A stretch of DNA of 64,000 nucleotides from an uncultured Glaciecola sp. (GCA_905479945.1 CAJQOP010000047.1:6122-70121), one strand, 5' to 3'; counted from the stretch's first letter, positions 55,453-64,000 are shown. A program made the numbers and translations. Notes: generated by a model not told the origin, from the letters alone.

Positions 55453-55528
55453 GGACGCTTAGCTCAGTTGGGAGAGCATCGCCCTTACAAGGCGAGGGTC
55501 ACTGGTTCAGGCCCAGTAGCGCCCACCA
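55453..55528 (+). tRNA. tRNA-Val (TAC), variant copy
   Basis: Cloverleaf with TAC anticodon; differs from the next copy at two positions. Confidence 0.93.
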
Positions 55529-55557: not shown

Positions 55558-55633
55558 GGACGCTTAGCTCAGTTGGGAGAGCATCGCCCTTACAAGGCGA
55601 GGGTCACTGGTTCAAGCCCAGTAGCGTCCACCA
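55558..55633 (+). tRNA. tRNA-Val (TAC)
   Basis: Perfect acceptor stem GGACGCT/AGCGTCC, TTCAAGC T-loop, CCA end. Confidence 0.97.
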
Positions 55634-57621: not shown

Positions 57622-58665
57622 ATGCAAAAGAGTAACGTAATAGGTATCGATTTAGCAAAAAATGTTATCCAAGTATGTGTAATTAGTGCTGACGGTGAAT
57701 TAGTTTCTAATAAAGCAGTATCGCCAAAAAAACTGAAAGAAATATTAGCCAAAACCAAACCCTCTATTGTCGCTTTTGAGGGTTGTAGTGCTTGTCATTT
57801 TTGGGGCAGGTTTGCCCAGCAATTTGCACATGAAGTTAGAATTATTGGCCCTCGAAAAGTAAAAGCATTTCTTCAAGGCCAAAAGACCGATGCAAACGAT
57901 GCTTTAGCGATTGCAATAGCCGTTTCGCAAGTCGGCATGGTATTTAGCCAGCTCAAGTCTAAAGACCAGCAAATATTACAAAGTATCGAAACTAGTCGTA
58001 AGTTTATAGACAAACAGTTGGTTGCTTTGATGAATCACATGCGTGCCTACTTGTATGAATATGGAATTACCACAGCGAGGGGCAAAAAGAGCTTCTCGCA
58101 GTTAGTGGCCAATATACTAGGCGGCAGTGTTGATGGATACTCTGAACTACCGGTCAGTTTAATCCCACCATTACGTACAATGTGGGAGCGCTACGAGCAA
58201 ACACTTGAGCAACGCTAGGATATTGAAAAGCAACGTAATATATTAATGAAACAATCCCAGCCATGTCAGCGACTAATTGAGTTAGAAGGGGTTGGTGAAG
58301 TATGCGCTGCTATGTTGTTTTGCAGTTTAGGGGATGGTAAAGGATTCAAAAATGGTCGGCAAGCCTTTGCATATGTTGGCGTGACACCTAAGCAATTTAG
58401 TTCTGGTGGCAAGGTATCCATGAAGGGCATTGATAAAGTGGGCGGTAATAAAGAGCTGCGAGCCGCTTTATATCTAGGCGCATTATCATTTGTTATAAGT
58501 CTACCCGACAAGCCAAAAACAACGAAACAAGCGTGGTTGATATCACTTGTTCAACGGGTTGGTATCAAACGAGCATGTATTGCCATGGCAAATAAAACAG
58601 TGCGAACGGCGTGGGCTTTAATAGCCACAGAAAAGCAATATCAAAAAACACTGTTACCTTGCTAA
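57622..58665 (+). pseudogene. IS110 recombinase interrupted by an in-frame TAG at 58216-58218
   Basis: DEDD RuvC motifs IGIDLAK, AFEG, KTDANDA; the same frame resumes after TAG and contains the Tnp serine motif FSSGGK. Confidence 0.9.
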
Positions 58666-59252: not shown

Positions 59253-60500
59253 ATGGAAAAGGGATTATTCCGACCTGAAGCTGTCAAGCATCAGGCTGCT
59301 AAATTGGATGGCAATGTTATTATTGCTAGGCCACTTGCCTCAAAAGTTTTGATGATATCGTTACTATGCGTTGTAGCAATCGGACTTACGTTTTTAATAT
59401 CTTCCTCGTTTCACCGTAAAGAAACTGTCGTTGGTTACTTGCAACCTGATGGTGGGTTAGCCAAAGTTAATGTTCCTCGCACGGGATATATTGCAAAATT
59501 GTTTGTTGTTGATGGACAATCAGTAACTGCTGGCCAACCGCTTGCCCTCATTAAAATTCCAGAATACCTTTCTCAAGGTGAATCTATATTCGCAGTCATG
59601 TCCGCTTCTATTGCGCAACAATCAGAATCGATTGAAATGCGCAAAGAACAAATAGAAATTCAATACGCTCAAGATGAAAGCGATATCAAAAATCGCGTGG
59701 TTTATGCTCAGCAATCCTTGAAGGATGCACGCAACCAGCAGCAACTATTAACGAACCGGTTAAAAATTCAAAAAGAAAGATTCAAGAGCTTATCGACGCT
59801 GTCAAGCAACGGCGCGATATCAGTGAACGATTTGCAGCAAAATGAAGAACAGTTACTAATCACTCAACAGCAAGTAGCTGAGCTAAAAGCACGATATCAA
59901 AATGAGTTAGGACAATTTGAACAATTATCCAGTCAACTAATTCGTATGCCATCTGAACGCACAAACCAAATTGCACTAATTGATGCAGAGCAATCTCGAC
60001 TGAACCAACAACAAGCTGAATTGGATGCGCGAGGACATGTGTTATTAAGAGCACCAATAGACGGAAAAGTCACTAATTTAACCGCCAAATTAGGCACAAC
60101 AGTCAAGCAATTAATGCCCTTAGCAACGATTGTGCCTGAAGATTCAGTGCTGAGAGCCGTGTTATTGGTGCCCACCCGAGCATTCGGGTTCGTAGAGCTA
60201 GGTCAACAAACACGCATTCGCTTCGATGCCTTCCCTTATCAACGATTTGGGTTATTTAAAGGGGAGGTAATCAGTGTGGCAAAAGCAATTTTGTTGCCTG
60301 GCGAAGTGGAGATGCCATTTGCACTGCAGGAACCAGTATACCGTGTTGAGGTATCTTTAGGTGACCAAGAGATCCGCGCTTATGGTAATCATGTCCCGCT
60401 ACAACCGGGGATGACATTAAGCGCTGATATAGTGCTTGAAGAACGAAGCTTAATTAGCTGGTTGTTCGAGCCTATTTTTAGTTTGAAAGGACAAATTTAA
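59253..60500 (+). CDS. HlyD family secretion protein (CvaA/MchE-like, type I secretion)
   Basis: LFRPEA N-terminus, single TM, long coiled coil, RFDAFPYQRFG, LQPGMTLSADI, WLFEP. Confidence 0.93.
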   Translation: MEKGLFRPEAVKHQAAKLDGNVIIARPLASKVLMISLLCVVAIGLTFLISSSFHRKETVVGYLQPDGGLAKVNVPRTGYIAKLFVVDGQSVTAGQPLALIKIPEYLSQGESIFAVMSASIAQQSESIEMRKEQIEIQYAQDESDIKNRVVYAQQSLKDARNQQQLLTNRLKIQKERFKSLSTLSSNGAISVNDLQQNEEQLLITQQQVAELKARYQNELGQFEQLSSQLIRMPSERTNQIALIDAEQSRLNQQQAELDARGHVLLRAPIDGKVTNLTAKLGTTVKQLMPLATIVPEDSVLRAVLLVPTRAFGFVELGQQTRIRFDAFPYQRFGLFKGEVISVAKAILLPGEVEMPFALQEPVYRVEVSLGDQEIRAYGNHVPLQPGMTLSADIVLEERSLISWLFEPIFSLKGQI

Positions 60501-60516
60501 CCAAAAGGAAATGAAA

Positions 60517-60729
60517 ATGAAAAATGAAAATAAGCAATTGAGTCAATTATCGAAAAATGAACTAATAGAGTCTGCTCTTTTAAGCGCTGTTTCTGGCGCT
60601 GGTTGTGAAGTATGGACAGAGTCGTGCGGTTGTGCGAAAGAGCCAGGTGAAGGTAATTGTTGTGATTATTGTGGTAGTTGGGGACCAGGAACTGTTATTT
60701 TACCCGAACCCGCATTAGACGAACTTTAG
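60517..60729 (+). CDS. Double-glycine-type leader precursor with a 6-Cys acidic core
   Basis: Leader ends IESALLSAVSGA (I-12, L-7, V-4, GA); core GCEVWTESCGCAKEPGEGNCCDYCGSWGPGTVILPEPALDEL. AAGGA spacing favours the ATG at 60517 over 60511. Confidence 0.8.
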   Translation: MKNENKQLSQLSKNELIESALLSAVSGAGCEVWTESCGCAKEPGEGNCCDYCGSWGPGTVILPEPALDEL

Positions 60730-60772
60730 CATTCCGTCAAGATTGATATAGCCTCAACCTCAAAGGATTGAT

Positions 60773-61315
60773 ATGTCACTGTTATCTTTAAATTTAAAAT
60801 CTTTAGCTAGTGAAGCCTTTTGTCTCGACAGTATAATTCAAGATAAAAGCAAATTGCTTCAACCTTCATTAGATAGTGTTTTAACATATAAAAATCAACA
60901 TATAGTTGATGGTTTGATGTCTGGACTTGATATAGATTTGAAGATCGCAGAACAATTGTTTGAGGATGGGCTTATCTGGCTCTGGTATTGCAATAATCAT
61001 CGCTCAGAGGGGTGTCGTACTATTGATGATCCGATTCTGATTTTGGATGAGGTTTGGCATACGTTTATTTTGTATACACCGTTTTATGTCAAGTTTTGCC
61101 AGACTTATTTTGGGGATTACTTGCATCATATGCCGACATTACTAGATCACGACAACTCTCTGCCAAAACATGATCAAGCCCATTATTTAAAGCGAAAAAA
61201 AGTGCAGTTGGAGACCATCTTCGAACTTTTAGGAAGAGACGTTTTTATCCGATGGTATCATGAATACCCAGTGATATTTGATCGTAAAAAAATTCTCAAA
61301 TTACGAAAAAAATAA
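60773..61315 (+). CDS. Protein of unknown function with DExWH...FC...LHHxP motifs (glycine-rich-domain-protein / DUF1399-like)
   Basis: ILDEVWHTFILYTPFYVKFCQTYFGDYLHHMP; family assignment recalled from motif, not searched. Confidence 0.6.
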   Translation: MSLLSLNLKSLASEAFCLDSIIQDKSKLLQPSLDSVLTYKNQHIVDGLMSGLDIDLKIAEQLFEDGLIWLWYCNNHRSEGCRTIDDPILILDEVWHTFILYTPFYVKFCQTYFGDYLHHMPTLLDHDNSLPKHDQAHYLKRKKVQLETIFELLGRDVFIRWYHEYPVIFDRKKILKLRKK

Positions 61316-61339
61316 TGAATTGTTAAAAGGATAGATTTA

Positions 61340-61816
61340 GTGAATAGATACTTATTATTAATGCTATTAATGTTGGGTTTTCAAACTAAGGCAAGCGAAC
61401 AAAATAATTCGAGCAGAACTCTTGATTCAGCGACTGCTATTATGTGGTACGAGTGCAGTAACGGTGAGGCTATTTTCTATGCGGATTTTGAGGCGTTCTT
61501 TAAATTAAAAGAGACCTTGGTGAAGATAGTATCTTCCGATCCTGTTGGAAAGTTCGATAAAGTAGACCCGAATTCAGATTACAATTTTATGTATTTTAAG
61601 ATTGAGGAACCCGAACCTCGTTGGGCTGTTGGCGTATTGCTAGAGGATACGTTCATAGCTGGCGGTAAAATTTATCAGTTTGATCCAAAAATCATGGACC
61701 GTTGGCATTATCACAATGAAATGCGAGTTTTGAATAATGAAGCCGTAAAGCATATCCGGAAAGAAAGAACAGACGATACATTGAATTATTGTGGTGTAGC
61801 CAAATCAGTCCCGTAA
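61340..61816 (+). CDS. Hypothetical exported protein
   Basis: GTG start with GGATAG RBS, signal-like N-terminus, two Cys; no family recognised. Confidence 0.65.
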   Translation: MNRYLLLMLLMLGFQTKASEQNNSSRTLDSATAIMWYECSNGEAIFYADFEAFFKLKETLVKIVSSDPVGKFDKVDPNSDYNFMYFKIEEPEPRWAVGVLLEDTFIAGGKIYQFDPKIMDRWHYHNEMRVLNNEAVKHIRKERTDDTLNYCGVAKSVP

Positions 61817-62019
61817 TGCGTGCGTCAAATATAAATATTGAACTTTACAAACATCGTTAAACGCTGGATTTACCCCCCAAATTAACGATAGTAAAAAAGC
61901 TCTTTGTTTAAGTGAAAACCATACTGAAAAGACACTCATAAAAGCTCATTAAAAGTATAGTGACTAATAGAAGCAAAAATCTAACAACCGTTGGTAGCTT
62001 TACATAATAGCTAACTAAA

Positions 62020-62151
62020 GAAATCCGCGCTTATGGCAACCATGTTCCGCTTCAACCGGGCATGACCTTAAGCGCAGATATCGTGCTTGAAGAGCTCAGC
62101 TTAATAAGCTGGCTGTTTGAGCCGATTTTAAGCCTGAGAGGGCGTTTTTAA
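62020..62151 (+). pseudogene. Orphan 3' fragment (last 43 codons + stop) of an hlyD homolog
   Basis: Translates EIRAYGNHVPLQPGMTLSADIVLEELSLISWLFEPILSLRGRF*, 38/43 identical to 60369-60500. Confidence 0.92.
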
Positions 62152-62189
62152 ACCTAAATATAACTTATAAAGTCTCAAGGAGAGATAAT

Positions 62190-62417
62190 ATGCAAGAACT
62201 TAACTATAATCAAATTGAAAATGTAAGCGGTGGCGTTGATGATTCGGTAGTGGTTGCTGGATTGGCGATTACGGGGATTTCAGCCGGACTGACATTGCTT
62301 GCGGTAGGAGCTGCTTTAGTAACAGTCGGTGGAGCTGCCTACACGACAGCTACTGCACTGGGAGCTGATGACTTGGGTGAAGCGATCGGCGGTGCCATTT
62401 ACGATGCACTAAACTAA
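62190..62417 (+). CDS. Double-glycine bacteriocin/microcin-like precursor
   Basis: AAGGAG RBS; 15-aa leader MQELNYNQIENVSGG; 60-aa Gly/Ala-rich hydrophobic core. Confidence 0.85.
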   Translation: MQELNYNQIENVSGGVDDSVVVAGLAITGISAGLTLLAVGAALVTVGGAAYTTATALGADDLGEAIGGAIYDALN

Positions 62418-62495
62418 TTTGATGTAAATTACCATGCTTCAAATACTATATTTTTGGGGCATGGTTACAATATTATTATAAATGTAGGTATAAAT

Positions 62496-62687
62496 ATGAA
62501 AAAGAAAAATGGGTTGTTTTGGTTGTCATACATATTAATACTAGTGGCTTTTGTATATTTGATTCAATTAGACGGCATAATTAGTAGGTATTCTTCGACT
62601 GGAGAAATCGTAATAATAACAATTTGTTTACTAGCAGTTGGTATATTTTTTAAAAAATGGTTTGATCATTGGTATAAGTCCAAATGA
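62496..62687 (+). CDS. Small two-TM protein, candidate immunity protein
   Basis: MKKKNGLFWLSYILILVAFVYLIQ...IVIITICLLAVGIFFKKW; directly after the precursor. Confidence 0.65.
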   Translation: MKKKNGLFWLSYILILVAFVYLIQLDGIISRYSSTGEIVIITICLLAVGIFFKKWFDHWYKSK

Positions 62688-63294
62688 AGATTTTTAAAGT
62701 TGGTTAATATGTCTACCTTTCTTTTACAGTGGAACCGATAACGTATTTTAAGATTATGTTTAGAGTGATTCCTCAACCCGAAGCCTCCGGTTGTTGCGAC
62801 AATTGTAGACATAATGCTCTTGATGTCTACTGATTTATCTTTTGTTGCCATTGGTACCTTTGGTTTGTTTTATATTTTATGTGTGCAATTATTGCTGCGT
62901 TTTTTTCAGATTAAGGAAGGCCCTAGAAAGCAGTAATGACGACTACTTTAGTCGCAGGTCTATATAACTATATTGATGAGGCATATACCATTACAATATA
63001 ACTTACACCTAATATAACTGAAATCATGAGACACAACTCGATTGGGTAATACTAGAAGTTTTGCATGAAATTAGATGTTGGCATTTTACTTGGCGAGATA
63101 TCTGGCGCTTTTGTTTAGATTGCAAACAATGCTGACAAAGTAATTATAAGGGCGCAGGTTTAGGGCACCATATCTATTATTTTGTTTTTCTTTCTGATGA
63201 TTTTTTTAGCAATTTAGTTAGTAAGCAAGAAGAATTAAATGAATATTTATAAATTTGCATCGCTCTATTTAAGTGCAATTTCTCATAAGGAACC

Positions 63295-64000
63295 ATGCCA
63301 TTGATTTACCAATCAGAAGCTGCCGAATGCGGCCTAGCTTGCATGGCTATGGTTGCAAACCATCACGGTCACAAACTCGACCTAACCATCCTTAGAAATC
63401 AATATAGCGTATCATTTAAAGGCGCTAACATGCAGCAGCTCATGCGCTTGGCTGAGCAGTTAGATATGGTGGGGCGTGCCTTAAAGCTAGATTTAGATGA
63501 CTTAAAAAATCTCAAAACGCCCTGCGTGCTGCATTGGGATATGAAACACTTTGTTGTGTTAAAAAAGGTATCTGGCAATAGCATCACGATTCTCGACCCT
63601 GCCTTAGGTGAGCGTAAAGTACCAATGAGCGATGTGGGCAAATCCTTTACGGGCATTGCGCTTGAACTCACCCCCACCTCAGAATTCAAAAAAAAAGACG
63701 AGCGCGTTAAGTTAGGCATAACAGCATTTTGGACTCGCATAGATGGCTTAGCATCTTCTTTAACCAAATTATTTATTTTGTCACTTTTACTACAATTATT
63801 TCTACTCGCCTCTCCTTATTACACTCAATTAGTGGTGGATGAGGTCTTGATTAGTCAAGATCAGCCGTTGTTAGTCGTTCTGGCTATTGGTTTTGGTTTA
63901 TTGGTCCTAATTCGAATATTGACACAAACCTTTCGTAGTTGGGTGGTATTGCACTTATCCTCAATGATGAGTGTGCAGATGGCCACCAATTTGATGCGCC
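63295..64000 (+). CDS. Peptidase-domain-containing ABC transporter (C39; CvaB/MchF-like), runs off the right edge
   Basis: Not in the ORF track. Manual translation MPLIYQSEAAECGLACMAMVA...PCVLHWDMKHFVVLKK...DPALG...FTGIALELTP, then TM segments; AAGGA RBS. Confidence 0.95.
   Translation, partial: MPLIYQSEAAECGLACMAMVANHHGHKLDLTILRNQYSVSFKGANMQQLMRLAEQLDMVGRALKLDLDDLKNLKTPCVLHWDMKHFVVLKKVSGNSITILDPALGERKVPMSDVGKSFTGIALELTPTSEFKKKDERVKLGITAFWTRIDGLASSLTKLFILSLLLQLFLLASPYYTQLVVDEVLISQDQPLLVVLAIGFGLLVLIRILTQTFRSWVVLHLSSMMSVQMATNLMR

Follow-up and report, generated by a model that had tools for sequence, protein, structure and literature searches.

Organization of the locus

The window analyzed here, a 64,000-nucleotide stretch from an uncultured Glaciecola sp. 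(GCA_905479945.1, CAJQOP010000047.1:6122-70121), contains a class II microcin-like type I secretion system (T1SS) locus in which hlyD is followed by peptide cassettes and these by a C39-peptidase ABC exporter (Table 1). HlyD matched the Pfam families HlyD_D23 (PF16576; E = 3.2e-16) and HlyD_3 (PF13437; E = 7.4e-14), in both cases exceeding the cut-off, and the NCBIfam model TIGR01843 (type_I_hlyD) at E = 3.3e-46, under its curated cut-off. At the amino acid level it is 73% and 72% identical to the hlyD products of two other Glaciecola species. The exporter carries an N-terminal Peptidase_C39 domain (PF03412; E = 1.4e-35 over residues 2 to 129) and shows 87% amino acid identity to the corresponding genes of Glaciecola sp. 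XM2 (G016) and of the metagenome-assembled genome (MAG) G023. The ABC gene is a mosaic. The 607-nt gap that precedes it (62688-63294) contained no ABC 5' fragments, and its sequence is unique.

Table 1. Features of the Glaciecola T1SS locus (positions in the window)
Feature	Position	Strand	Description
hlyD	59253-60500	+	415-aa HlyD-family membrane fusion protein (MFP) of type I secretion system, intact
Tail block, copy 1	60369-60500	+	Last 43 codons and stop of intact hlyD; repeat D1
Predicted hairpins, copy 1	H1 60372-60428; H2 60429-60475		Fold of -43.5 kcal/mol, z -4.84
pep1	60511-60729	+	72-aa Cys-rich precursor; leader ending in LSKNELIESALLSAVSGAG, core with 7 Cys
acc180	60773-61315	+	180 aa; accessory protein in pep1 module, PF27765 family, UCP032817-like
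acc158	61340-61816	+	158-aa ORF, N-terminus hydrophobic; last of the three pep1-module genes
Spacer between pep1 module and orphan tail	61817-62019	+	No hlyD homology in alignments
Orphan hlyD tail (block copy 2)	62020-62151	+	82% identical to copy 1
Predicted hairpins, copy 2	H1 62023-62079; H2 62080-62126; small hairpin 62132-62143		Fold of -51.6 kcal/mol, z -4.79
Conserved intergenic region	62152-62189	+	Shine-Dalgarno AAGGA in loop of small hairpin TCTC/GAGA (62173-62185)
pep2	62190-62417	+	75-aa double-glycine precursor; leader MQELNYNQIENVSGG (62190-62234), Gly/Ala-rich hydrophobic core
Candidate immunity gene	62454-62687	+	77 aa (TTG start) or 63 aa (ATG start, 62496), with two hydrophobic segments
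C39-peptidase ABC exporter	63295-64000	+	Runs past window end; full gene of 695 aa, contig C47 69416-71503

Homologues of pep1 with the same leader and a CxxWxExCGC core were found in four loci (L133, L135, L137, and L138). The leader ends in AVSGAG in the window and in AVSGG in homologues, both endings falling within the Gly-Gly or Gly-Ala/Ser pairs of such leaders. The pep2 leader, MQELNYNQIENVSGG, is of the double-glycine type, and leaders of the form MQELxFEQVExVSGG in more than 30 loci can be aligned to it. The pep2 precursor gave only weak, sub-threshold matches to MccV (PF17508; E = 0.0025) and to the class IIb bacteriocin model TIGR03949 (E = 0.0036); its assignment to the Microcin V family was rejected, since the PF17508 match reached 18.8 bits against a cut-off of 27 and lay mostly over the leader.

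The acc180, acc158, and candidate immunity ORFs had no family match in the local Pfam and NCBIfam copies. The assignment of acc180 to PF27765 comes from the precomputed Pfam annotation of an identical gene in L123 and of 12 homologues, while acc158 is 52% identical in amino acids to its homologue in G023 and approximately 50% identical to those in L137 and L138. After each precursor the relatives encode a small hydrophobic ORF, which the candidate immunity ORF matches in size and position. Both pep1 and pep2 are complete genes, presumably co-transcribed and exported through the single exporter, and we infer that their peptides are expressed and active.

A second hlyD tail of different origin

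Segments 60369-60500 and 62020-62151 form direct repeats of 132 nt that differ at 24 positions. A repeat search returned a single 134-nt family (60367-60500 versus 62018-62151) with 82% identity and a spacing of 1651, and a MAFFT alignment placed a sharp start of the homology at ..AAG|A(A/G)ATCCGCGC and its end at the stop codon. Among the 43 codons, 22 differ, 17 synonymously and 5 non-synonymously (R26L, F37L, K40R, Q42R, and I43F), which is exactly the count given in an earlier note on this DNA. As that note had also described, each tail is followed by a different precursor with accessory genes: pep1 after 10 nt, with two further ORFs, and pep2 after 38 nt, with a small membrane ORF. In-frame stops lie directly upstream of the second copy, which is therefore a fragment without the rest of hlyD; it appeared in the genome search as a 43-residue match to HlyD residues 372 to 414 (E = 2.2e-18). 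When either tail was compared by blastn with the whole 4.03-Mb assembly, the sole match was the other tail (E ~ 1e-31), so that a chance origin of the repeat was rejected. The junction upstream of the orphan tail is covered at 99.8 to 100% identity by four metagenome contigs (L123, L126, L127, and L128), and the fact that these come from four different ENA sample accessions excludes an assembly artefact.

The orphan tail was identical at 125 of 132 positions to the 3' end of the intact hlyD of Glaciecola sp. XM2 and at 124 of 132 to the intact tail of G023, compared with 108 of 132 for the resident tail. As previously proposed, it derives from another hlyD allele rather than from a recent local duplication. 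Between these Glaciecola species the housekeeping gene gltX is 70 to 72% identical (third positions, 44 to 47%). Two of the changes in the orphan, R398L and K412R, hit residues that are invariant in seven intact HlyDs.

G023 bears a pair of orphan tails, one 43 and the other ~85 codons long. The order of modules and the point at which the tail begins coincide in the window and G023, from which we conclude that the two-module arrangement was probably formed once. The spacer upstream of the orphan tail, unique by blastn against 80 loci and the genome, is weakly similar to the matching junction in G023. The predicted intact hlyD ending in ILSLRGRF and followed directly by pep2 was not found in any genome or contig. 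pep2 is restricted to this population, plus one 87% variant on a 1.5-kb contig that lacks upstream sequence; all the contigs extending upstream of its tail show the orphan context, and two others start inside the tail. No deletion joint between the two tails (60369 to 62020) was present in the assembled contigs covering the region. The locus is not syntenic across Glaciecola species (gltX, the S9 peptidase gene, and the CoiA-like gene do not adjoin it in the relatives), and for this reason an argument on loss versus gain of the pep1 module was dropped.

Orphan tails and cassette replacement in related loci

Of 81 related loci, 9, belonging to six genera, bore one or two orphan hlyD 3' fragments beyond the end of an intact hlyD. 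Similarly, in an even sample of 401 genomes of the family, 5 of the 23 block-bearing genomes contained two blocks, 0.7 to 3.1 kb apart. The recurrence of hlyD tails, on which the proposal had been staked beforehand, was thus borne out. Besides the window and G023, orphan tails occur in L049, L053, L055, L058, L065, L069, and L116 (Arsukibacterium, Alishewanella, Rheinheimera, and Colwellia). The junctions upstream of orphan tails share no common motif and lie within ~10 nt of ATCCGCGC in five loci, a clustering that counts against random illegitimate joining unless selection keeps the complete block; other orphans start at codon 245, 329 to 344, or 385. In loci other than the window the orphan and resident tails are 93 to 99% identical, a similarity that import explains no better than local duplication or gene conversion would. 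Two stand-alone pep1 modules located far from any T1SS (L133 and L135) retain a decayed hlyD tail (residues 381 to 415) just upstream, indicating that modules travel with a piece of hlyD. The hlyD of G010, considered as a chimera, turned out to be a frameshifted pseudogene; an MQEL cassette lies behind it, and there is no ABC gene.

In most MQEL-type loci the repeat unit comprises the tail, the intergenic region, and the leader up to the Gly-Gly site; in L049, L058, and L065 it runs 96 nt beyond the hlyD stop, to the Gly-Gly codons. The intergenic region and its hairpin (helix 5) are kept in 33 sequences from several genera. Past the leader, MQEL(T/K)FEQVE(E/D)VSGG, cores and immunity genes are unrelated. 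Pairwise comparison of loci showed homology across hlyD, the intergenic region, and the leader, a break at Gly-Gly, and a return of homology at the ABC gene. Six pairs displayed this pattern: L067/L084 (93.6%, then 80%), L058/L064, L046/L060, L045/L047, L050/L051, and L069/L074. They bear out the suggestion that modules are exchanged at the conserved 3' end of hlyD, with the refinement that the anchor is longer than the tail, spanning tail, intergenic region, and leader (~230 nt). Displaced modules are themselves complete genes that carry a ribosome-binding site, a start codon, and a leader.

Nucleotide constraint and predicted hairpins

Across 34 genes, the fraction of identical codons among same-residue pairs was 0.38 to 0.53 in the body of hlyD and 0.74 to 0.76 in codons 376 to 415. 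Pairwise profiles agreed, with synonymous conservation confined to the hlyD 3' end across genera. This conservation could reflect selection on a nucleic acid element rather than recombination.

Two hairpins, H1 and H2, were predicted in both tails of the window (Table 1), and none of 200 shuffles was as stable as the window tail folds. The same fold was predicted in blocks from Rheinheimera, Alishewanella, and Idiomarina (z, -2.3 to -2.8), it was absent from the MKEL-type loci L092, L095, and L100, and distant hlyD genes without the block gave z values of ~0. Pairing was possible in 98% of the cells of the block, compared with 31 to 42% when the pairing was slid, a comparison made on the same sequences from which the structure had been derived. 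Three pairs were changed on both sides, a number equalled in 8 of 500 shuffles; support from covariation is thin because most stem positions are invariant. Orphan blocks retain the fold (z, -2.1 to -4.3), and that of L069 keeps H1 despite a broken reading frame. As both strands fold about equally well, RNA and DNA elements are indistinguishable here. No Rfam match was obtained in the block at E values up to 1, no sigma-70 promoter or intrinsic terminator signal in or around the tails rose above shuffled expectation, and inspection of the consensus by eye gave no convincing sigma-54 site. Since the tail is a discrete, synonymously conserved block with two predicted hairpins, it may have been kept for a function as well as being a scar, and the hairpins themselves may have a role.

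Proposed mechanism

The data support exchange and stacking of peptide modules anchored at the hlyD 3' end, and we consider it likely that this is a polymorphic microcin-like T1SS locus whose cassettes are swapped and stacked between conserved arms, with hlyD tails as leftovers. The left arm, of ~230 nt, consists of the last ~43 hlyD codons, the intergenic region with its ribosome-binding site, and the 15-codon double-glycine leader, and the right arm of the start of the ABC gene. Crossovers in both arms would yield a clean replacement of core and immunity gene. If instead the far end of the incoming DNA joined illegitimately upstream of the resident block, the resident cassette would be left behind with a leftover hlyD 3' fragment in front; duplication of a block-plus-cassette unit would be an alternative route to stacking. 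Recombination would thereby be homologous on the left and illegitimate on the right, with the incoming module possibly placed first. Applied to the window, the resident MQEL-type cassette (pep2 and the small membrane ORF) would have kept the tail of an XM2-like hlyD allele, and the three-gene module (pep1, the PF27765 protein, and the 158-aa protein) now stands directly behind the intact hlyD.

Alternative explanations

The last ~130 nt of hlyD might instead be a structured cis-element kept mainly for its function and not as a scar, acting in the mRNA as a processing site, 5' stabilizer, or translational control for an abundant peptide message, or else at the DNA level. Every MQEL-type cassette would need such an element, any duplication or import would stack it, and selection would trim the remnant to the complete element. 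This possibility, to which we give real weight while holding it to be the less probable one, is favored by the recurrence of H1 and H2 in both window copies and in the blocks of other genera, by the pairing and two-sided changes described above, by the persistence of the fold in orphans, and by the cross-genus synonymous conservation. Furthermore, five orphan 5' ends lie at the foot of H1, no MQEL-type orphan starts inside the block, and the tails ahead of the stand-alone pep1 modules have decayed. On the other hand, covariation is thin over mostly invariant stems of a structure tested on its own source sequences, both strands fold alike, Rfam, promoter, and terminator searches gave nothing above chance, and MKEL-type loci lack the fold. 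The cis-element overlaps with cassette exchange between conserved arms, as a conserved element also supplies recombination homology. A further reading, rather doubtful in our view, holds that the hlyD end is dual-use, encoding the HlyD C-terminus and a two-hairpin module, and that the units of head, core, and immunity gene are autonomous, transferable cassettes. Block, ribosome-binding hairpin, and leader would then serve whatever core follows as a portable "expression and export head." If true, this would explain the 93 to 98% identity of non-coding orphan tails between species saturated at housekeeping silent sites, the cutting back of remnants precisely to the base of H1, and the presence of the same head across at least seven genera of Alteromonadaceae.

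The repeated arrays of a structured ~130-nt block plus genes also recall integrons, in which short gene cassettes are bounded by imperfect inverted-repeat attC elements of ~60 to 140 nt, and a recombinase could use the hairpin block as a boundary to insert or excise block-plus-cassette circles. The clustering of orphan 5' ends at the foot of H1 and the stable folding of both DNA strands agree with such site-specific capture. However, it is very unlikely: contig C47 (74 kb) carries none of the genome's 22 PF00589 matches, leaving no tyrosine recombinase or integrase nearby; the junctions are imprecise, varying by up to ~10 nt without a core motif; and other orphans begin at the codon positions given above, in some cases far upstream. 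attC sites are conserved in structure rather than sequence, whereas the block here is conserved in sequence, overlaps a coding sequence, and precedes its cassette. Finally, the pep1 module could have landed by chance in the end of hlyD, duplicating a stretch of it in a one-off illegitimate insertion with no general mechanism. A single event would suffice for the window and G023, given their shared module order and tail start, but the account is contradicted by the recurrence of orphan tails: four other genera supply at least seven further loci in which they appear with varied length and unrelated cassettes, and they occur in the sampled genomes as well. Nor is the window orphan a copy of the resident tail, and we regard this last account as extremely improbable.

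Comparison with known systems

CDI (cdiA-CT/cdiI) and Rhs loci place variable toxin/immunity cassettes behind a conserved sequence, and each extra cassette downstream is headed by a fragment of that sequence, a possible homology arm for switching or deletion. There the conserved sequence belongs to the toxin gene, the variable toxin forming the C-terminal end of a large, conserved protein for delivery, so that orphans lack a start codon and the delivery domain and are silent until re-fused. The parallel with these systems drawn in the earlier note holds in that extra cassettes each stand behind a conserved-sequence fragment (in the window, twice in G023, and in seven further loci), but not as regards the orphans, which are complete genes here. 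What is conserved ahead of each cassette is 3' sequence of another gene, hlyD, together with the intergenic region and leader. The precursors are encoded independently, each having a Shine-Dalgarno sequence, an ATG, and a leader, and need no re-fusion.

With class II microcins such as MccV (cvaA, MFP; cvaB, C39-ABC; cvaC/cvi), the locus shares an HlyD-type MFP, a C39-ABC exporter, and small double-glycine precursors, and small adjoining ORFs are candidates for immunity genes. It differs in the order of genes (hlyD, peptides, and ABC gene in one direction) and in a leader that is near-identical across genera while the cores are unrelated. The pneumococcal blp bacteriocin-immunity region, which is reshuffled by recombination, likewise combines a shared exporter with a hypervariable, strain-dependent set of genes for double-glycine bacteriocins and immunity; it is, however, Gram-positive and lacks an MFP gene, and we know of no export-gene remnant marking each of its cassettes. 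Its diversity has been described (PMC3171984, accessible portion). Surveys of class II microcins report genomes with multiple microcins and voice a suspicion of horizontal transfer (PMC9746304 and PMC12219008, accessible portions); in the same portions, orphan modules, pseudogenes, partial export genes, and cassette recombination go unmentioned.

Significance

Class II microcins are now regarded as widespread weapons of Gram-negative bacteria. To our knowledge, how their repertoires diversify has not been described. A literature search that included the accessible portions of the two surveys (PMC9746304 and PMC12219008) yielded no account of export-gene remnants flanking cassettes. The present locus family would provide a readable record of such diversification, with a fixed head and a fixed right arm (the ABC start) enclosing hypervariable cores and immunity genes, and with stacked cassettes tagged by hlyD tails in approximately one in five block-bearing genomes. 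It would thereby extend the orphan-module logic of CDI and Rhs loci to type I-secreted peptides. The hlyD tails and the conserved head offer a simple search key for new peptide/immunity pairs in marine Alteromonadaceae, and the synonymous constraint and predicted hairpins within a coding sequence make a testable case of overlapping protein and nucleic acid function.

Organization of the locus

All features of the locus lie on the plus strand, downstream of two tRNA-Val genes. To judge from its sequence, the gene set is that of a type I secretion (T1SS) locus for double-glycine peptides of the class II microcin type, whose sequence-level features it displays; pep2, the precursor gene behind the second hlyD tail, falls below the MccV and class IIb bacteriocin profile cut-offs. 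No terminator-like site was found in the window between hlyD and the ABC gene.

Features of the peptide secretion locus in their order along the window
Feature	Position	Strand	Length	Remarks
tRNA-Val(TAC)	55453-55528			first of tandem pair
tRNA-Val(TAC)	55558-55633			second of tandem pair
S9 peptidase gene		+
IS110-family element	57622-58665			transposase split in two ORFs (198 aa, DEDD_Tnp_IS110; 139 aa, Transposase_20)
hlyD	59253-60500	+		Pfam HlyD_D23 and HlyD_3; resident tail, 60369-60500
pep1	60511-60729	+	72 aa	7 Cys
PF27765 protein gene		+	180 aa	third gene counting from hlyD
158-aa protein gene		+	158 aa	after PF27765 protein
Spacer			203 nt	between 158-aa protein and orphan tail
Orphan tail	62020-62151	+
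pep2	62190-62417	+		leader MQELNYNQIENVSGG; core rich in Gly/Ala
Hydrophobic ORF		+	63-77 aa	candidate immunity gene (62454-62687)
Gap	62688-63294		607 nt	before ABC gene
C39-peptidase ABC exporter gene		+	695 aa	last gene of locus

The tRNA-Val genes are 97% identical and lie just upstream of the S9 peptidase/T1SS region; the T1SS locus is not syntenic among the Glaciecola species compared, which suggests an island adjoining tRNA genes. In a distant relative (L139), a single unbroken operon comprises the S9 peptidase, HlyD and C39-ABC genes, so that the IS110-family element, which separates the S9 peptidase gene from hlyD in the window, may have cut an S9-hlyD transcription unit there. The gap before the ABC gene contains no long ORF and resembles no fetched locus, and the same interval measures about 18 nt in G023, a MAG of another Glaciecola species.

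A second hlyD tail from a different allele

The 55- to 64-kb region contains one long direct repeat, found by a repeat search (60367-60500 versus 62018-62151; 82% identical, 1651 nt apart). In a pairwise alignment, no similarity was present upstream of ..AAGA(A/G)ATCCGCGC or past the stop codon, and in-frame stops immediately upstream of the second copy identify it as a gene fragment. The two tails (60369-60500 and 62020-62151) showed 24 nucleotide differences, affecting 22 of 43 codons, silently in 17 and with a change of residue in 5. In the whole 4.03-Mb assembly each tail matched just the other (E about 1e-31), the sole other HlyD gene being 31% identical. Four metagenome contigs, each from a different ENA sample accession, span the upstream junction of the orphan tail at 99.8 to 100% identity; this junction is thus not an assembly artefact.

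In comparison with intact hlyD 3' ends, the orphan tail was identical at 125 of 132 positions to that of Glaciecola sp. XM2 and at 124 of 132 to that of G023, whereas the resident tail matched it at 108 of 132. As a yardstick, gltX of the same species showed 70 to 72% DNA identity, with third positions saturated (44 to 47%). Three of the seven changes relative to the XM2 allele alter residues, two of which (R398 and K412) do not vary among seven intact HlyDs. By these comparisons, the orphan tail is the end of a different hlyD allele, far closer to the alleles of other species than would be compatible with the genome background, and is released from protein-level constraint. The earlier note had described a recurrence of the last 132 bp of hlyD without the rest of the gene, differing at about 22 of 43 codons with five amino acid changes, and had attributed it to a different allele and not to a recent local duplication; all of this agrees with the present data.

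Recurrence of orphan tails

In G023, an intact hlyD is followed by a pep1-type module, two orphan tails (43 and about 85 codons) and the ABC gene, each tail preceding a different precursor with an MQEL leader and a small hydrophobic ORF; its accessory proteins share 66% and 52% amino acid identity with those in the window. Among 80 related loci taken from species genomes, orphan hlyD 3' fragments were found after an intact hlyD in Arsukibacterium (L049 and L053), Alishewanella (L055 and L058), Rheinheimera (L065 and L069) and a Colwellia MAG (L116), while L093 and L109 contain an hlyD fragment alone. Cultured relatives with a stack include Alishewanella aestuarii B11 and Rheinheimera muenzenbergensis E-49. 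When 401 species genomes were sampled evenly from the family, at least 23 gave a strong match to the block (the last ~130 nt of hlyD), and at least 5 of these contained two blocks on one strand, 0.7 to 3.1 kb apart; these are lower bounds, since at most two candidates were scored per genome.

Other arrangements were also encountered. Alkalimonas amylolytica (L044, 5639-7786) has a partial second locus upstream of the intact one. It begins with a piece of hlyD that covers residues 227-415 and has a frame defect inside, continues with a peptide and a membrane ORF, and closes with 153 aa from the N-terminus of the ABC exporter; right-arm remnants thus exist besides left-arm ones. In Alishewanella sp. 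d11 (L058, 12498-16100) and Rheinheimera soli (L069, 12830-13200), an orphan tail and cassette lie downstream of the ABC gene; out-of-frame ORFs recurring downstream in L058 suggest a possible second ABC gene, in which case entire tail-cassette-ABC units could stack. L039 (9187-10955, in genome G010) is a decaying locus that has retained its cassette: a frameshift breaks hlyD into two ORFs (304 and 112 aa), followed by an intact-looking MQEL precursor (85 aa, Gly-rich), a 93-aa membrane ORF and then carA and carB, with no ABC exporter gene.

Cassette replacement between two conserved arms

The repeat in L049, L058 and L065 starts inside hlyD, passes the stop codon and runs 96 nt beyond it to the Gly-Gly codons of the leader; those of L055 and L069 likewise reach past the stop. 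When 33 blocks from several genera were aligned, the sequence was near-invariant from ATCCGCGCTTATGG (hlyD codon ~373) to these codons and unrelated right after them. In more than 30 loci hlyD is followed after about 50 nt by the leader MQEL(T/K)FEQVE(E/D)VSGG and then by differing cores. Six locus pairs, two of them within single genomes (L067/L084, L058/L064, L046/L060, L045/L047, L050/L051 and L069/L074), showed 88 to 94% homology over hlyD, the intergenic region and the leader, which stopped at the leader end and returned at the ABC start codon or shortly ahead of it. Such a pattern is the signature of replacement of a cassette (core plus candidate immunity gene) between two conserved arms.

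These pairs and the recurrent stacks support the earlier proposal that modules are exchanged or stacked via the conserved hlyD 3' end, and the presence of orphan tails in G023 and in seven loci of four other genera argues against a one-off insertion. The predicted intact hlyD followed directly by pep2 was not found in the related loci and contigs, nor was a deletion joint between the two tails in the assembled contigs covering the region.

Conservation and predicted folding of the hlyD 3' end

Third-position identity of hlyD between Glaciecola species was 17 to 50% over most of the gene and 67 to 87% in the last ~70 codons. Among same-residue pairs in 34 genes, the fraction of identical codons was 0.38 to 0.53 in the body, 0.57 to 0.64 in codons 316-375 and 0.74 to 0.76 in codons 376-415. 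In the ABC gene, a mosaic between XM2 and G023, the first ~120 codons showed a less marked rise. Such a pattern would arise if the block and its cassette were frequently recombined or transferred together, and also under direct selection on nucleotides.

The block is predicted to fold into two long hairpins, H1 (ATCCGCGCTTA...TAAGCGCAGAT, enclosing CCCG...CGGG) and H2 (GCTnGAAnAnCGCAG...CTGGnTGTTnGAGC). Despite their 24 differences, both window copies share this predicted fold (-43.5 and -51.6 kcal/mol; z scores of -4.84 and -4.79), and none of 200 shuffles was as stable. The z scores ranged from -1.5 to -2.8 in other genera and were about 0 for distant hlyD genes lacking the block. In the 33-sequence alignment, 98% of cells can pair, compared with 31 to 42% with slid pairing, and three pairs change on both sides, a number reached by 8 of 500 shuffles. 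Since most stem columns are invariant and the structure was derived from the same 33 sequences, this covariation is suggestive, not proof. A further hairpin, of 5 bp and conserved, has the Shine-Dalgarno sequence AAGGA in its loop. No Rfam family matched the block, and no promoter or terminator signal was found in or around it. Both strands are predicted to fold, so that the fold does not distinguish an RNA role from a DNA role. The hlyD end carries an unexpected conserved and probably structured element.

Orphan blocks retain the predicted fold (z scores of -2.1 to -4.3), the one in L069 keeping H1 despite a broken frame. Five orphan 5' ends (the window, G023-A, L053, L065 and L069) fall within about 10 nt of the H1 foot and the others further upstream (codons 245 and 329-344); none of the MQEL-type orphans compared starts inside the block, and no motif shared by the sequences upstream of the orphan tails was found. 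After the hlyD stop (alignment columns 143-160), Rheinheimera, Arsukibacterium, Alkalimonas and Alishewanella have a short stem-loop (GCTC-N5-6-GAGC, CTCT..AGAG or CCCT..AGG) whose sequence varies while its pairing appears kept; it is deleted in Glaciecola.

The pep1 module

Homologues of the 180-aa protein occur mostly in stand-alone modules of two or three genes (a Cys-rich precursor and the PF27765 protein, sometimes with the 158-aa protein); the surroundings of these modules are unrelated and contain no T1SS genes. On one contig, the PF27765 gene is divergent from an S9 peptidase-HlyD-ABC operon. Two such modules far from T1SS genes, L133 (5608-5712) and L135 (5614-5712), have a precursor that is immediately preceded by the decayed remains of an hlyD tail (residues 381-415), with the predicted fold lost. 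The pep1-type module, too, has therefore travelled together with part of hlyD. In the window and in G023 the modules come in the same order and the orphan tail starts at the same point, with weakly similar junction sequences, and from the sequences we infer that the arrangement with pep1 in front arose once. The pep1 homologue of G023 (L032, 11505-11723) shifts frame in a stretch of seven G that comes just behind the leader, its core being matched in another frame by tblastn; this could reflect a frameshifted pseudogene, a MAG sequencing error or a slippery homopolymer.

Discussion

In these loci, cassettes are replaced between conserved arms, and stacks recur that are tagged by hlyD fragments of variable length; the tail in the window is of foreign allelic origin. 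Incoming DNA would pair within hlyD or the block, and the outcome would depend on its right end: pairing in the ABC gene as well would replace the cassette, whereas illegitimate joining ahead of the resident block would leave the resident cassette in place behind a tail. Homology-facilitated illegitimate recombination is an established process in transformable bacteria, and the proposed stacking step, homologous on the left and illegitimate on the right, resembles it. Tandem duplication followed by core divergence probably contributes too, as the Colwellia repeat is 98.8% identical and its cores are related. Site-specific insertion of cassettes is unlikely, given that the contig contains no tyrosine recombinase and the junctions are imprecise. 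The block itself may be retained, and cut back to a whole unit, owing to a requirement for it in cis.

The earlier note had likened the locus to the orphan arrays of CDI/Rhs systems. The array logic is indeed alike, but one defining feature of those systems is absent, since the toxins are not C-terminal parts of the conserved protein and the "orphans" are complete precursors with an export signal; "stacked cassettes" is therefore the better name. The interpretation is supported, and extended. Full-text literature searches and term searches inside recent microcin surveys returned no description of hlyD (MFP) remnants flanking cassettes, which may exist elsewhere. Polymorphic toxins with orphan cassettes are a known theme; what is new here is that it occurs in marine Alteromonadaceae, at loci for type I-secreted peptides.
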